Of a DNA stretch of 64,000 nucleotides, positions 15,716 to 22,227 are shown piece after piece. A model generated the notes under the pieces. It was not told the DNA's origin. It worked only from the letters and a program-made list of their open reading frames with translations, and did no database searches. The DNA is from an uncultured Methanosarcinales archaeon. Lineage in GTDB: Archaea > Nanobdellota > Nanobdellia > Woesearchaeales > CAZYIM01. Numbering within the stretch: the first letter of the stretch is position 1; each line of letters starts with the position of its first letter. Position numbers and translations under genes: made by a program. The stretch is taken from the NCBI GenBank assembly GCA_964647565.1, contig CAZYIM010000008.1, forward strand, positions 12,045-76,044, written 5' to 3'.

Positions 15716-16759
15716 TTGAGAATGAGCAGATTCCCCTCTTTCAAAGAAATAACAGCTGTTCTTAAAGCTGACAAGAAGCATCTATTGCCGACACTTTTTA
15801 TCTCGATTCCAAGTTGGTTGAATAGGATTAATAATTGTGAACGTCAGGTTCTATCATTACATAAGCATTTCTCCAGCAATGAAGGTATGAACACATTGAT
15901 GTGGATGTTTATCCAGACTGAAACTGCTTATCTTACAGAAACCCTTGGAATATTTGATGTTGAGGAGAACGATTACAGGAGCCTAGCTGCTCCAAAAGAA
16001 AATCAAGAACTCTATAAAAATGTGGGTCTACGTGATACAGCTGCTATTGATGGATTAATATCGGAATTATCAGAACAATTAAAAGTACTGCATCAAATGG
16101 ATGCAACTCAACACTGTGAAATTAATCAGAAGTTTATGGATGATCTGATTCATTACAGGGATGGGGGTGGCGATCACGACAACATTTTATTTGATCTGAA
16201 AAAATATCTTGTTTCGCACACTCATTACCCCGACAACATAAACCACTCAAAAGAGATTGTGCTGCATGTCCATAAATTGAATGACAAGAGTGATGAAGGT
16301 AATTATTCTGAGCCAGATAGGTCAACCAGCTATTTTAGGGCGTTGGGTCTTGTATCTTATTTTCATGAATTAAATGGCGAGGGTGACAGACACGTCATGA
16401 ATATTGATTTTTATGTCAGGCATAGGATCTGGACAAAAGAATATAGTTTTGGTCCGATCAAGGTTACTCTTGATGAAAAAGAGAACAAGATGACATATAC
16501 TCTGGCAGATGATAGTCAAGCAACAAGTAGTGTAACGCCGATGGAACTTTCAAAAAAGGATGTAAGCTTCTTTCTTTCCATCTCTCCTGACGTGCTTCCA
16601 TTCATCTGTTACGATCCGAGCAAGGATCTCGAATCAGATATGCAAAATCCCGGTATCTTAGAAGGTATTGAGAACCTCTCGTCTGTTGCCAGAGAATTTG
16701 TGCCTAAGGTCTGGGGAACAAAATGTTCATATCTTAAGAATATGGACGGAATTCTCTAA
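15716..16759 (+). CDS. hypothetical protein
   Basis: 347-aa ORF, no recognised motif. Confidence 0.65.
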   Translation: MRMSRFPSFKEITAVLKADKKHLLPTLFISIPSWLNRINNCERQVLSLHKHFSSNEGMNTLMWMFIQTETAYLTETLGIFDVEENDYRSLAAPKENQELYKNVGLRDTAAIDGLISELSEQLKVLHQMDATQHCEINQKFMDDLIHYRDGGGDHDNILFDLKKYLVSHTHYPDNINHSKEIVLHVHKLNDKSDEGNYSEPDRSTSYFRALGLVSYFHELNGEGDRHVMNIDFYVRHRIWTKEYSFGPIKVTLDEKENKMTYTLADDSQATSSVTPMELSKKDVSFFLSISPDVLPFICYDPSKDLESDMQNPGILEGIENLSSVAREFVPKVWGTKCSYLKNMDGIL

Positions 16760-17187
16760 TAATAGCTTTTATTGGGAGGATTCTTTAGCACTTCTTCCAT
16801 TATCTCCCATTTGCCGTTTAATACAACTGGCTTCATAGCTGCAATCTCATCCTTATAATGGATGTCTGGGACGGGATTCATGATGAAGATTGGCAGTTCA
16901 GCATCAAAGGCCTTGCCCATCTCTAGAAACGTGTTGCCCCCGATATAGTTCTTTTTCTCTTCCTTATCATAGTTCAAAACAAGAATTGCATCAGACATCT
17001 CTATCTTTTGAAAATGGACTTTCATAAGGTCGCCCTTGAAATCCTCTTTCTCTTTTTTCAGCTTGAACTCGTCATCCACATCCTCAATAGTGGGAATATA
17101 GACCTCGTGGCCTCTCTCTTTAAGGATATTCTTGATCTCAATGATTTTGTCAAGGAAGGCATAGCTTGCGCATATGGTTATAATCAT
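16756..17187 (-). CDS. nucleoside 2-deoxyribosyltransferase-like protein
   Basis: IITICAS...KIEMSDAILVLN...YIGGNTFLEMGKA. Confidence 0.7.
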   Translation of the reverse strand: MIITICASYAFLDKIIEIKNILKERGHEVYIPTIEDVDDEFKLKKEKEDFKGDLMKVHFQKIEMSDAILVLNYDKEEKKNYIGGNTFLEMGKAFDAELPIFIMNPVPDIHYKDEIAAMKPVVLNGKWEIMEEVLKNPPNKSYY

Positions 17188-17870: not shown

Positions 17871-18887
17871 TTATGCCTTAGAAAGTGTTCTTATAATATC
17901 TGATCCTGTATGTGGAATAATACCTTTCTCGAATTTCTTTGGTTCTTTTAGATATTTGGTAAGGGCATATGCTGAGAAAATATAACGATTATCAAGTTTT
18001 TTTATGTTGTTAGGAATATGCAGCTCATATTCCAGCTCTTTGGTAAACTCATATAGTGTTTCTGTGTCGCCTCTATGCAGCACAAAGCCTGAACACGAAA
18101 CAAGTTGAGATAGGAATGGGCTATATTTTGTTTCAAAGAGGTCACCTTTTTCTGGAACCCAGATTTCTTCTATGAGTTTCTCAACTTCTGTTTTCCATTT
18201 CTTATTGGGCAGTTCTGAGAGATTTGAATAGTTAGGATATAGGCCTCTGAATCTTGCATAGTGTGATTCTGCTGTTAAGGGAGTTTCCAATTCAAAGTTT
18301 CTTTCGCTGTTCAGGTTTCCTATTTGTGTGAACTCCTCATTCTTGGCAGCTACGAGCTCAATCTTTTTTATTTCATCAGGAAACAAGTAAAGATTCTCTG
18401 GGCGGTGTCCACCATATCCTGCATCGATTGTAAGGAATGTGAGCAAGCCTTGGGCATAATCAGTTTTTTGAAATTCAACCAGCCTTTCTTCAAAAGGAGA
18501 TTTGGTATTGTCATATGGCAGGTGTTTTATGAATTTGAAATCAACTGTTTCTGGAAGCTTTTCTTTTCCAAGAACTGTCTGCAGGAACTTTCTGAGCTTG
18601 TCCCTTTGTGGGGATTGCTGTAACCTTCCTGAATCTGGCCGGTCTATTTTTATAGAGGTTTTAACCTGGACAGCTGTGGCATCAGCCGCATAATCTAATA
18701 TTGCACTATAGATGATCTGGTTCATGCTTGTTGCAATCGATGCTGCTGCCACACCAATGAATTCAGAAATATCTTGTGATAATGATTGGTCATTTAGTCT
18801 TTCGAGATCTGGTGCAAGTTTAAAGGCTCGCAGCATCTGACTCAGTCGAACATTAGCAACTCGTGGATTATTAGGTAGGTAGTACAT
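17871..18887 (-). CDS. hypothetical protein
   Basis: 338-aa ORF after a TATA box. Confidence 0.65.
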   Translation of the reverse strand: MYYLPNNPRVANVRLSQMLRAFKLAPDLERLNDQSLSQDISEFIGVAAASIATSMNQIIYSAILDYAADATAVQVKTSIKIDRPDSGRLQQSPQRDKLRKFLQTVLGKEKLPETVDFKFIKHLPYDNTKSPFEERLVEFQKTDYAQGLLTFLTIDAGYGGHRPENLYLFPDEIKKIELVAAKNEEFTQIGNLNSERNFELETPLTAESHYARFRGLYPNYSNLSELPNKKWKTEVEKLIEEIWVPEKGDLFETKYSPFLSQLVSCSGFVLHRGDTETLYEFTKELEYELHIPNNIKKLDNRYIFSAYALTKYLKEPKKFEKGIIPHTGSDIIRTLSKA

Positions 18888-18979: not shown

Positions 18980-19038
18980 TTATTCCCCTTCAAAATCTAT
19001 CATGTGGAAGACTTTGTGGCGTCCTGAATTTTTTTTCT
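18980..19038 (-). pseudogene. displaced relic of an apt 3' end
   Basis: Minus strand encodes ...HKVFHMIDFEGE*, matching the apt C-terminus KVHSMIQFEGD*. Confidence 0.75.
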
Positions 19039-19152
19039 CAATTTATTCATTTAATTGTCATAACTCTAAAATTTATTCGGTTTTTCCGAAACACTGGACA
19101 TGTACACGTAAGACTTTAATATTCTCTATTTTATTATTTTTATCAATTTTTC

Positions 19153-20127
19153 TTGCATTTGAAATCCAAGAAGTTAATTGATGATTTCAAAATGAAAAAA
19201 GATAAAAATCATATCAAAATGAGAAATAAAGTTGAACTTCTTTTAGATTTAGGTTTTTCAATTGAAGATATAGCTGCCAAACTTCATTTATTAATTGGAA
19301 CTCGCTTTATTAGAAAATCAGTAAAATGGTATAAATACTGCATCATGGCAAAGAAAAACCAAAAGATGGCTATTTCCAAACATCCTGGCCTTTACAGCAA
19401 GGCAGGTAAAATCGCACAACAAAAACATCCCTGGTTGGGGAGAGAATTGGGAAAGAAATATGGGCCGATCCAAGGAAAGAAAAATGCCGAAAGACTTCGA
19501 GGGAATTCTAAATATTTTTCAAAAATAGCCAGAAGATTACATGAAATTAATCCTGAACACTCTAGAAGAAATATGAAAAAAGCTCACAATACTATGAAAC
19601 GTGAAGGGACCTTCTACAAACATCAATTTAATGCATCCCTGAAATGCATGGAAAAACATCCTAATCAACTTAAAGAAATGTCAAGAAAAGCCCACGCTTT
19701 ATACCCTCTTGCCCAATTGGCAAGAGAAAGTAGAAGAAGGCATTACCCTTATAGATTTATGGATTGTTTTTTTGATTCATTCAATGAAATGAAATTATGT
19801 ATGTTGTTAGTTGAAAACGGATTGATGGAAAAACCGATAGAAGGGAAAAACGTGCATTTTCATTTATATAATCATCATATTGATTTCTTTGTTAAAAAAA
19901 CGGTCTTTATTGAATATCATCCTCCAATACAGTATGGTGGTAAAAACGAGACTCTAAAAAGTTATTATAAAGAACGCAGGAAACTTTTAGATAGTCGCGG
20001 ATATAAAGAATATCCCTTAATTGTATTTGACAGATTGAATCGTACCGAAAGTAAAATAAATAAAATAAAAAAACTAATCGCCCTCAAATTGAATCATAGA
20101 ATGAACTTTCAATCCTTGCTTTTCTAA
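19153..20127 (+). CDS. putative free-standing (homing-type) endonuclease, C-terminal PD-(D/E)xK/DUF559-like domain
   Basis: Basic repeated helices (KHP..., NUMOD-like); C-terminal FDSFNE...HIDFFV...FIEYH; AT-rich; overlaps apt 3' end convergently; start may be ATG at 19192. Confidence 0.7.
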   Translation: MHLKSKKLIDDFKMKKDKNHIKMRNKVELLLDLGFSIEDIAAKLHLLIGTRFIRKSVKWYKYCIMAKKNQKMAISKHPGLYSKAGKIAQQKHPWLGRELGKKYGPIQGKKNAERLRGNSKYFSKIARRLHEINPEHSRRNMKKAHNTMKREGTFYKHQFNASLKCMEKHPNQLKEMSRKAHALYPLAQLARESRRRHYPYRFMDCFFDSFNEMKLCMLLVENGLMEKPIEGKNVHFHLYNHHIDFFVKKTVFIEYHPPIQYGGKNETLKSYYKERRKLLDSRGYKEYPLIVFDRLNRTESKINKIKKLIALKLNHRMNFQSLLF

Positions 20128-20601
20128 TTTATTTCTACCTCCTAAATCTGGCAATTCGATTACAAAAGAACATTCGATAAGATCTCCTCCTATTTTTCTT
20201 ATTAACTTAGCTGAGGCCCCCGCGGTACCTGCGGTCGCAATCAGATCGTCTACAAGCAACACCTTGTCACCTTCCAGGATAGCATCTTTATGGACCTCGA
20301 CTGCATCCTTGCCGTACTCCAGCTCATACTCTTCCTTGACGGTTTCTGCAGGCAGTTTGCCTGGCTTTCTTATCAGCACAAAACCTAGTCCTAGTTTGTA
20401 GGCAAGCACAGAGCCAAAGATAAAACCCCTGCTCTCGATACCCGCAATCTTGTCTATCTTCATATCCTTGTATCTTTCGTAGAATTGATCGCAGGTCTGC
20501 TTGAAGGCCTCTGGATGCTTTAGAAGCGTTGTAATATCCCTAAACATAACACCCTTGATCGGAAAGTCGGGCACTGTTCTGATAGTTGATTTTAAATCCA
20601 T
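20074..20601 (-). CDS. apt: adenine phosphoribosyltransferase
   Basis: PDFP..GVMFRDITTLL, GIESRGF, RKPGKLP, YELEYG, LLVDDLIAT; GGGGTGA RBS. Confidence 0.96.
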   Translation of the reverse strand: MDLKSTIRTVPDFPIKGVMFRDITTLLKHPEAFKQTCDQFYERYKDMKIDKIAGIESRGFIFGSVLAYKLGLGFVLIRKPGKLPAETVKEEYELEYGKDAVEVHKDAILEGDKVLLVDDLIATAGTAGASAKLIRKIGGDLIECSFVIELPDLGGRNKLEKQGLKVHSMIQFEGD

Positions 20602-20691
20602 ATTGATCACCCCGATTGAAGTTTCTTGTACTGATTTATATATTTTACCAAAGGGAGATGAAGGGGGGATGTATTTTATTAAATGGTGATA

Positions 20692-20848: not shown

Positions 20849-21322
20849 ATGGAGGGTTGTACTTTTTGTGAAATCTATGAGAAGAAGGTGAATATTATCA
20901 ACGAGAATGAACATTTCTATTCTAGGTTTGACCTCTTTCCAGTCTCTCCAGGTCATGTAGAAATAATCCCTAAGAAACATATTGTCTCGCTTTTGGATCT
21001 TACTAATGAAGAGTGGGCGAATCTGCAGCAAGCCATAGATCATACGTGGAAGATCGTTCAACTGGCTGACAAGGCCAAGGTCTATGAAAATCTGTTAGAG
21101 AGTCCGTATAACAAGAAATCAGAAGTGTATCTTCGATTGATGCTGGAACATCCTGCTATTGATTTAAAGCCAAGAGATTTCAACTCAGGCAATAATGATG
21201 GGCCTGCTGCTGGCAGGACAATTGACCATCTGCATTATCACATAATTCCTAGATACGCGGGTGATATGGAGAAACCTCTTGGCGGCATTAGGAATATCAT
21301 CCCTGGTATGGGTAGATATTGA
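20849..21322 (+). CDS. HIT-family hydrolase
   Basis: CTFC, PVSPGH..IIPKKH, AGRTIDHLHYHIIPR (histidine triad). Confidence 0.92.
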   Translation: MEGCTFCEIYEKKVNIINENEHFYSRFDLFPVSPGHVEIIPKKHIVSLLDLTNEEWANLQQAIDHTWKIVQLADKAKVYENLLESPYNKKSEVYLRLMLEHPAIDLKPRDFNSGNNDGPAAGRTIDHLHYHIIPRYAGDMEKPLGGIRNIIPGMGRY

Positions 21323-21399
21323 TTCTATTGGTGGTTATTTATCTACTTCTGAGTGGTAAAAACAAAACATTTATAAACTCATTCTATTGCTTTAACATC

Positions 21400-22227
21400 A
21401 TGGTTAAAATTGAAGCTCCTTTGTTGACAACGTATTTTGTCAGGCACCAGGAATCAGTCCAGAACAAACAAGGTTTTGGACCTTCTGATACTGATCTGAC
21501 TGAGGAAGGCAAGCAAAACGTCAGGGATATAGTCAAATTGTTCAACCATGTTGGTGTTGATAATATCGACTATATATTTTGTGGCGATCTGAAAAGACAT
21601 GATCAGACGTTAAATGCACTTCTTGATCAAATAGATTTCAAAGGACATATACGATTTGATGAAAAATTGAATGCATTCTTTAATCATCCTATGTTAGAAG
21701 GTGATCCTGAAAAGACTGAAAAAGAGTATGATCTTGCAAGATTCAAGAGAGGAGACAATGGCCTTTACGAAATCAGATTATCTGATAATAAAACTCTCGG
21801 CTTTGATCCCCAAGGAACAGGCGTTTATCCATTTGATCCTCTTTATTCCTGGGCGTATTTTGATAAGGATATAAGACAAGCAGTATTTCCTGATGTGCAG
21901 GATTTGGCTACGTTTGATGAAGTTGAGAGGAAGGTAAAAATGTTCCAGGCCTCATTGATTCACGAGATCAAACCTGCAAGACCGCAGAATGTGGTTGCAA
22001 TCTCTTCCTGTTCGCCAAGCGGTTATAATCTGGAATATTCTGCCTTTGAAACTATTGGTGAAAACTTGTTTGTATCTTTGGGCAGTGAGAATAATTCGAT
22101 TTTCTATCAAAAACATGATGAACTGATGATTCTTGGATATTCTCGAGAGGATTATCTTCAGAACAATGATAAACTTAGAGTAATAGAAGGAAATATAAAG
22201 ATCAAGAATTTTATTAATAGAACATGA
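21400..22227 (+). CDS. histidine phosphatase superfamily protein
   Basis: YFVRHQES...LTEEG...DLKR..QT (RHG-like motif). Confidence 0.75.
   Translation: MVKIEAPLLTTYFVRHQESVQNKQGFGPSDTDLTEEGKQNVRDIVKLFNHVGVDNIDYIFCGDLKRHDQTLNALLDQIDFKGHIRFDEKLNAFFNHPMLEGDPEKTEKEYDLARFKRGDNGLYEIRLSDNKTLGFDPQGTGVYPFDPLYSWAYFDKDIRQAVFPDVQDLATFDEVERKVKMFQASLIHEIKPARPQNVVAISSCSPSGYNLEYSAFETIGENLFVSLGSENNSIFYQKHDELMILGYSREDYLQNNDKLRVIEGNIKIKNFINRT

Follow-up and report, generated by a model that had tools for sequence, protein, structure and literature searches.

A candidate free-standing homing endonuclease gene beside a stranded apt 3' end in an archaeal chromosome

In a 64-kb stretch of DNA from an uncultured DPANN archaeon (contig CAZYIM010000008.1; hereafter the window, with positions counted from its first base), we found that the 3' end of apt, the gene for adenine phosphoribosyltransferase (APRT), is overlapped by a convergent open reading frame (ORF) and that a second, decayed apt end lies beyond this ORF on the apt strand. 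We judge it likely, at a probability of about three in four, that the interval from ~19092 to ~20214 is a compact mobile unit of ~1.1 kb, in which a free-standing gene of the homing endonuclease type, antisense to apt, is coupled with a copy of the last ~45 apt codons that belongs to the element. The original prediction for this DNA, a homing element that replaced the 3' end of apt and left the old end stranded, is supported by the analysis, which came out in its favour on each point named beforehand as a possible refutation and from which we infer cleavage and a cut site; shallow co-divergence of the ORF with apt and two loci (L015 and L012) whose apt tails do not look foreign temper that support.

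The locus and the predicted nuclease

The window apt gene, whose end had been correctly placed at 20074, occupies 20074-20610 on the minus strand and comprises 178 codons plus a stop codon, its product ending in ...KVHSMIQFEGD. It matches the NCBIfam apt equivalogs at E-values from 5e-79 to 1e-70 (NF002634, E 5e-79) as well as Pfam Pribosyltran, and on sequence grounds it is a true adenine phosphoribosyltransferase gene. The gene appears to be an intact hybrid. Codons 1-132 (20215-20610), the host-type 5' part, have a GC content at third codon positions (GC3) of 0.54, and codons 133-178 with the stop codon (20074-20214), the AT-rich 3' part that we read as element-borne or co-converted, have a GC3 of 0.20. 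A scan along the gene placed the change point after codon 132 (support interval 130-138; ~20209-20215; permutation p=0.001), in agreement with an earlier by-eye impression that the last ~45 codons are the more AT-rich. Codons 121-129 (20224-20250, minus strand) encode the phosphoribosyl pyrophosphate (PRPP) loop, DDLIATAGT, which may be a recognition or immunity region, and codon 127 (20230-20232) is GCA, for alanine, where ORF-free alleles encode glycine.

The ORF lies at 19192-20127 on the plus strand and encodes 311 amino acids from an ATG at 19192 that was chosen by family alignment; a TTG upstream at 19153 would yield 324. It is AT-rich (GC 0.32; GC3 0.28), and its 3' end overlaps that of apt in antisense by 54 nt (20074-20127), as had been predicted along with a PD-(D/E)xK-like domain, for which structure matches and DUF559-like features (below) now provide support. 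The region ahead of its start (19092-19191, plus strand), at the right end of the element, holds the motif CACTGGACAT (19092-19101), a TATA-like sequence TTTAATAT (~19116-19123) and the leader. The apt reading frame is uninterrupted and the ORF stands outside any intron or intein; Rfam reported no intron RNA at the locus, its one sub-threshold match, to a long non-coding RNA, being judged chance.

Adjoining this region is the relic of what we take to be the displaced native apt 3' end (18980-19088, minus strand). Its clear part (18980-19042), slightly longer than the 18980-19038 first proposed for an orphan APRT C-terminus, ends in ...HKVFHMIDFEGE and a stop codon, and decayed, indel-ridden homology reaches up to ~19088, as a gapped DNA alignment suggests. 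The relic aligns significantly with APRT C-termini (tblastn E 3.8e-4). When a hidden Markov model (HMM) of the last 42 residues of ORF-free APRTs was searched against 3880 six-frame fragments of the whole window, the relic was the second-best match and the sole one besides apt itself (E 4e-4, 18.1 bits; next E 3.1), and it scored better with this profile than with one of ORF-linked APRTs (E 0.055). The frame slip that had been invoked ahead of the orphan end (RKKIQD) proved unnecessary, since the in-frame reading IEKKNSGRHKVFHMIDFEGE aligns equally well.

Could the arrangement be an artefact, that is, a mis-assembled contig, a spurious opposite-strand ORF in an AT-rich spacer and a chance FEGE-like peptide? 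The clear part of the window relic is short (12-20 residues) and taken alone its E-value is moderate, but contigs from other public runs in Logan are identical to the window and span the junction (X3 record 9, 20049-20572; X5 record 15, 20077-20288), making an assembly chimera unlikely, and together with 99 ORF homologs under purifying selection and a three-part architecture that recurs in dozens of loci, with relics of up to 42 codons at E 2.5e-19, they effectively refute this explanation. The Logan contigs over the region, at depths of 2-5, contained no joints or empty-site forms, and are silent on polymorphism because such contigs lose rare variants. The public runs listed as containing the sequence included no RNA data set.

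An AlphaFold model of the ORF product, built from a 24-sequence alignment (mean pLDDT 82.8), has an N-terminal helix-turn-helix (HTH), basic, NUMOD3-like helical repeats at residues 70-183, and at residues 187-300 a beta-beta-alpha-beta-beta-beta-alpha-beta-alpha domain, with helix 197-208, strands 221-225, 228-234 and 238-242, helix 255-268 and strand 276-279. The model contains the alpha-beta-beta-beta-alpha-beta core of the PD-(D/E)xK superfamily: strand 228-234 bears D231, and E241-F-H243, with His replacing Lys, comes where strand 238-242 ends. The invariant residues of the family (E199, D231, E241-x-H243 and E253) are modelled at the canonical helix-E, strand-D and strand-(D/E)xK positions, and E199, D231, H243 and E253 run in the same order as the E-D-H-D motif of the homing endonuclease I-Bth0305I, a likeness by order and not by superposition. 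The catalytic domain of that enzyme (3r3p) was also the top Foldseek match in the PDB (probability 0.97, TM 0.67 on the target, E 0.14), followed by 3hrl, and an all-against-representatives structure alignment ranked 3hrl at 7.6 (87/94), 3r3p at 7.5 (96/98), TnsA at 7.2, PspGI at 6.6 and Vsr (1cw0) at 6.0. The model thus shows the Vsr-like catalytic fold of the EDxHD family, and by language-model features (Atlas) 17 of 30 matches were DUF559 clusters (score 0.93).

At the sequence level the ORF matched nothing in Pfam, including LAGLIDADG and GIY-YIG, or in NCBIfam, and PHROGs returned nothing useful; no family member matched Pfam PF04480 (DUF559), and among PDB sequences a profile search (E<=10) returned a designed HTH repeat and noise, with no nuclease. 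A profile search of 1.84 billion representatives gave 503 clusters at E<=0.001, most of them sharing the nuclease domain alone. NUMOD3, a Pfam family of nuclease-associated DNA-binding modules typical of homing endonucleases, was clear in 4 of the 35 distant relatives scanned (up to 131 bits), with one more borderline. Based on the model, the ORF product is a putative site-specific endonuclease with a C-terminal Vsr/DUF559-like PD-(D/E)xK domain.

Recurrence at apt and the histories of the two gene parts

Comparison of sequences makes the ORF a member of an unannotated DPANN family, with 99 homologs of ~300 amino acids at 50-69% identity, those with named sources being from Nanoarchaeota, Woesearchaeota or Micrarchaeota metagenome-assembled genomes. 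The ORF is single-copy in its own genome (G000). Among 400 other genomes sampled from the phylum, which included no other member of this genome's family, full-length copies were present in only two, G173 and G242, from different families; G335 carries a remnant with three stops and G286 a partial, diverged copy. Without the ORF, apt is common, occurring in 71 of 151 genomes from the order. Metagenomes searched with the family alignment contributed another 47 loci for a total of 53, of which 47 extend 200 nt or more past the ORF. In 43 of these 47 informative loci apt stands tail-to-tail with the ORF, as the original prediction would have it for ORF homologs, and in 42 of the 43 the two overlap, by 17-132 nt (median 24). 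The ORF therefore has what is expected of a free-standing homing endonuclease gene, a fixed position at one conserved target gene with occupied and empty alleles in a patchy distribution.

Three of the four loci without a tail-to-tail apt hold distant homologs (L008, L056 and L058; 35-39% identity), which like those in L004, L010 and L011 sit in other genomic contexts. In L056 (1509-4486) a 343-amino acid homolog with 36% identity and more basic repeats lies between genes for an rfaE-domain-I kinase and an rfaE-domain-II adenylyltransferase and overlaps the beginning of the adenylyltransferase gene; the bifunctional HldE carries both domains in one protein. The fourth, L019 (2773-4572), combines a full-length ORF with a well-preserved relic of apt (residues 138-175), but the position of apt is taken by a gene for a xanthine/hypoxanthine-phosphoribosyltransferase-like protein of 221 amino acids, which abuts the ORF and is followed by an MTAP gene. 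This locus reflects either loss or replacement of apt following invasion or an ectopic insertion.

Stranded gene ends recur as well. With 68 queries from APRT C-termini against the 1.5 kb preceding each ORF, we found a second APRT C-terminus in 27 of 49 loci at E<0.01 and in 29 at E<0.02, counts that include duplicate or near-duplicate rows (L006=L013, L024~L025, L028=L044 and L017=L057); in a reversed-sequence control none of the 49 fell below 0.01 (best E 0.019). All relics lie on the apt strand and match residues within 137-178, mostly 40-260 nt from the ORF start, with four at 411-808 nt and that of L009 overlapping the start of its ORF remnant. The longest are open frames of 39-42 codons (up to 42 codons, E 2.5e-19), which in three distinct lineages (L032/L024/L025, L014 and L019) open at residue 137-138, a boundary that coincides with the composition change point in the window. 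Of 28 ORF-free apt loci of the order, a single one has a relic (L068, E 3.6e-7), and L068 alone among them retains an ORF remnant (HMM positions 258-298, E 4.5e-10).

The motif CACTGGACAT was found in 16 of the 49 loci, 55-192 nt ahead of the ORF start and with the relic directly next to it; besides the window these include L002, L005, L006, L012-L018, L022, L038, L048, L053 and L057. It is partly palindromic, lies ~12-20 nt upstream of the TATA-like box of the ORF, and is duplicated or inverted in L005, L016 and L022. We regard the region as a probable promoter or operator of the ORF, and the motif may be an operator for the HTH of the ORF product itself. It also resembles the opposite strand of the apt loop codons, over 6-7 nt only.

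The extent of the insert is given by a pair of occupied and empty loci. In L015 (with the ORF) and L070 (without it), the apt N-terminal parts are 90% identical and both flanks are syntenic; L015 1-683 aligns with L070 822-1504, L015 1732-2229 aligns with L070 1525-2022, and upstream blocks follow. The difference is a clean insert of ~1.05 kb that contains only the ORF, the upstream motif and an apparent short, internally deleted relic, which rules out a larger integrated element. In the other occupied and empty pairs compared (L005/L060, L039/L088, L014/L064, window/L061 and others), homology was limited to apt or one flank.

Other loci preserve degenerate copies. Only the C-terminal 40-65 codons of the ORF are left beside apt in L068 and L009, and frameshifted copies occur in L043, L046 and L047, with internal stops in L043 and L046. 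These remnants and frameshifted copies, along with ORF-free alleles carrying the ORF-linked loop residue (L060, L063 and L064), which fit a final, ORF-lost stage, display the steps of a cycle of invasion, degeneration and loss. The apt gene of L009 (G335:C93) aligns in two frames (residues 4-48 and 42-178), indicating a frameshift or sequencing error in apt.

The loop residue in question is at position 127. All 40 full-length ORF-linked apt alleles have DDLIAT[A/S]GT (26 Ala and 14 Ser), and the partial alleles of L009, L033 and L047 bring the ORF-linked count to 43 of 43. By comparison, DDLIATGGT is present in 24 of the 28 ORF-free alleles, or in 23 of 27 without L074 (genome G451, marked unpublished), which is also in the trees; the exceptions are L060 (Ser), L063 (Ala), L064 (Ala) and the remnant-bearing L068 (Ala). 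Column 127 is the most ORF-associated position in apt (z 25.6), and a synonymous choice, ACC at codon 129, is also associated (z 9.9). From residue 127 on, 11 of 52 columns have z>4, versus 8 of 121 upstream. The loop around this residue may thus be the recognition or immunity site.

Trees of the two parts of apt behave differently, as had been anticipated. On residues 1-120, ORF-bearing and ORF-free alleles interleave, with 13 state changes of which at least 5 are forced by well-supported branches, and the approximately unbiased (AU) test rejects a single ORF-bearing clade (log-likelihood difference 211.6, p 0.00015). On the tail (residues 137-178 or 130-178) there are 7-8 state changes and a single clade is not rejected (difference 26.1, p 0.12), for an alignment of 42-49 columns that has lower power and a per-column penalty ~3.4 times smaller than that of the N-terminal part. 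On these alignments, ORF-bearing alleles are polyphyletic for the apt 5' part and not demonstrably so for the 3' part. Tail identity tracks ORF identity when the N-terminal part is controlled for (partial rho 0.27, versus 0.10 for the reverse), and the loss of identity from N-terminal part to tail is -0.135 in close pairs of ORF-bearing and ORF-free alleles versus -0.080 in ORF-free pairs (the pairs being non-independent). The clearest mosaic is L014, with an N-terminal part 82% identical to that of ORF-free L064 and a tail nearest to ORF-linked alleles (79% to L054). Composition adds to this picture, with GC3 change points at a log-likelihood ratio above 5 in 10 of 40 ORF-linked apt genes and in none of 28 ORF-free ones, where the difference between N- and C-terminal parts is -0.003 +/- 0.058.

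The element also occurs at the apt end of a gene fusion. In L002 (4886-6226) the partner is a 446-amino acid fusion of a methylthioadenosine-phosphorylase-like protein with APRT, and in several relatives (G013, G446, G428, G437, G014 and G324) apt forms the C-terminal domain of frames of 374-468 amino acids. The genome of the window (2.68 Mb in 86 contigs, 87% complete with 1.85% contamination; relatives of the same order are listed at 0.6-2.3 Mb) has a second, divergent apt-like gene on another contig (G000:C72:5312-5782) with 40% identity over residues 10-166. Around apt in the window, the surroundings are loosely nucleotide-salvage-flavoured, with a weak nucleoside 2-deoxyribosyltransferase-like ORF (16756-17187), a HIT-family hydrolase (20849-21322) and a histidine-phosphatase-family protein (21319-22227); the 338-amino acid gene adjoining the relic (17871-18887) is without a family match.

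A proposed homing route and its alternatives

A route by which such an element could spread is as follows. With its HTH and basic repeats, the ORF protein would bind ORF-free apt over a long site around the codons of the PRPP loop (...ACN GGN GGN ACN...), and its Vsr/DUF559-like PD-(D/E)xK domain would cut the gene there. Repair from an occupied allele would then copy the altered loop codon (G127A/S, presumed resistant), the apt tail of the element, and the ORF with its promoter. The recipient's own tail would pair with the donor relic as a second homology arm and be left stranded downstream, where it would decay, and apt would stay whole as a hybrid gene. With the relic acting as a homology arm, this route would account for the common relic boundary at residue 137, for relics at every stage of decay, and for the occupancy of apt amid differing downstream genes. 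Since the 3' end of the ORF overlaps the apt stop region, deletions removing the whole ORF would be selected against and its last codons would stay, as those retained in L068 and L009 do. The act of cleavage, the exact target and the direction of copying in this scheme are predictions, and the element may have been mobile recently.

Several observations weigh against a mobile element of this kind. The mean GC3 shift between N- and C-terminal parts did not differ significantly between ORF-linked and ORF-free apt genes (Mann-Whitney p 0.07), and ORF GC3 follows that of the N-terminal part (rho 0.66) better than that of the C-terminal part (rho 0.37). ORF identity correlates with N-terminal identity (rho 0.56), and the ORF tree largely mirrors the apt N-terminal part at shallow nodes; no near-identical ORFs were found in divergent hosts, and the sole incongruence tested for recent horizontal transfer, L036/L037, was non-significant (AU p 0.317). 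In independent pairs, presence of the ORF and residue 127 agreed in about 4 of 5 and none showed the reverse (p 0.125, five pairs being too few to reach significance). In some loci the current apt 3' part does not look foreign: that of L015 has a 2-amino acid deletion in common with its ORF-free kin, and the relic of L012 resembles ORF-linked tails. L019, as described above, has an ORF and a relic beside a gene other than apt. Finally, the ORF is under strong purifying selection, with dN/dS of 0.12-0.15 where dS is unsaturated, a value equally compatible with domestication and with activity.

These points bear most directly on the possibility of a domesticated or long-resident gene pair, in which one ancient insertion was inherited vertically, the ORF has taken on a host role (such as that of a repair nuclease or DNA-binding regulator tied to purine salvage), and patchiness arose by many losses. 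The selection on the ORF is similar to that on apt (dN/dS 0.07-0.10), dS is similar for the two genes in close pairs (0.58 and 0.68 in L030/L034), each genome has a single ORF copy, and the conserved operator-like motif at the ORF promoter also suits a gene in host service, as does the match of shallow ORF and apt clades. However, a history of losses alone should leave ORF-free alleles with relics and with Ala or Ser at residue 127; in fact 24 of 28 have Gly and 27 of 28 are without relic or remnant. The rejection of a single ORF-bearing clade on the apt N-terminal part, the confinement of composition change points to ORF-linked genes, and the scarcity of full-length copies in the 400-genome sample, where the two carriers belong to different families, also count against it, and the NUMOD3-bearing relatives and homing-endonuclease-like fold point to selfish ancestry. 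We therefore consider domestication improbable, though it is the alternative that best survives the data.

Less probable still is a site-specific integrative element that uses the 3' end of apt as part of its attachment site, with a recombinase encoded elsewhere and the ORF product as an accessory DNA-binding protein. A duplicated gene end flanking an insert is also a hallmark of integration at attachment sites, and the ORF product does have an N-terminal HTH. But its C-terminal domain is nuclease-like, the L015/L070 insert of ~1.05 kb holds only this ORF, and the two gene-end copies have diverged in DNA sequence rather than being exact repeats. Searches of Pfam, NCBIfam and PHROGs gave no match to a recombinase family, and a repeat finder, which also missed the diverged duplicate gene end, detected no terminal repeats.

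Relation to known elements and implications

Returning to the candidate homing element, its gene is like those of the free-standing homing endonucleases of T4-like phages (SegF, SegG and MobE, agents of intronless homing) in standing next to the gene it targets without being part of an intron or intein. The phage elements belong to the GIY-YIG or HNH families, act during co-infection, and spread by double-strand-break repair with co-conversion of flanking markers, a mode of spread proposed for the apt element too, while relying on collinear flanking homology. To our knowledge they carry no duplicated gene end, unlike the apt element. DUF559 proteins are mostly single-domain proteins with no known role, and to the DUF559 (PF04480)/NGO0050-like domain (3hrl) the apt-element ORF has a structural likeness without any Pfam match.

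Closer precedents are the gene hybrids made by mobile ORF elements (mORFs) in fungal mitochondria, where this kind of arrangement has mainly been described so far; two papers report them for Glomus atp6, atp9, cox2 and nad3, for Endoconidiophora cob and atp6, and, by citation there, for Allomyces macrogynus atp6 (PMC3630166, PMC6279837). In these cases a mobile endonuclease ORF brings along a foreign version of the C-terminal part of the host gene, which is read in frame with that gene; the native C-terminus persists downstream as a duplicate that is unexpressed or decaying, and inserted and native tails fall into different groups on trees (PMC3630166, PMC6279837). The apt element combines the same three components, an in-frame inserted C-terminal part, an endonuclease-like ORF and a native C-terminal duplicate downstream. 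Compared with the fungal cases as they are presented there, it differs in that its host is an archaeal chromosome and not an organelle, its target is apt, its ORF is antisense with an end that overlaps the gene end rather than following in phase, its nuclease is Vsr/DUF559-like whereas those of the mORFs are LAGLIDADG or GIY-YIG proteins on the same strand, and an active-site-loop substitution, G127A/S, tracks its occupancy.

In fold and domain plan the ORF product also resembles the EDxHD/Vsr-like homing endonucleases, among them I-Bth0305I and the phage Hef type; for I-Bth0305I (PDB 3r3p) a composite motif of E170, D196, H213 and D222 is described (PMC3239194). As described there, that enzyme is intron-encoded in phage recA, whereas the apt-element ORF is free-standing. 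HMM searches detected no sequence similarity between the apt-element ORF and this family, and for that reason we do not file the ORF as a member of it. According to a 2018 Haloferax paper, free-standing homing endonucleases are known chiefly from phages and organelles. Among open papers, a scope that leaves absence from print unproven, we found none that links apt to a natural homing endonuclease, the listed matches for the two terms together all concerning gene targeting, and none that describes such an element for DPANN, Woesearchaeota or Nanoarchaeota.

More tentatively, and at somewhat less than even odds, the apt elements may represent an undescribed family of homing endonucleases, built from an HTH, NUMOD3-like helical repeats and a DUF559/Vsr-like nuclease, that spreads among DPANN chromosomes as a self-contained cassette flanked by two ends of the target gene. 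The tail it carries would keep apt functional, and the stranded tail, rather than being debris, would serve as a portable right-hand homology arm, enabling homing without synteny beyond apt. The antisense overlap would hinder deletion, and each invasion might alter the enzyme through G127A/S, which lies in the PRPP-binding loop.

For phylogenetic work in this group, apt 3' ends are unreliable. If our interpretation is correct, the gene-end-replacement strategy of the fungal mitochondrial mORFs would be operating in cellular archaeal chromosomes, and an unannotated protein family (99 close homologs, with 503 representative clusters sharing the nuclease domain) would gain a function. The nuclease would be a candidate long-site scaffold, and the element would offer a natural marker for following how uncultivated DPANN archaea exchange DNA.

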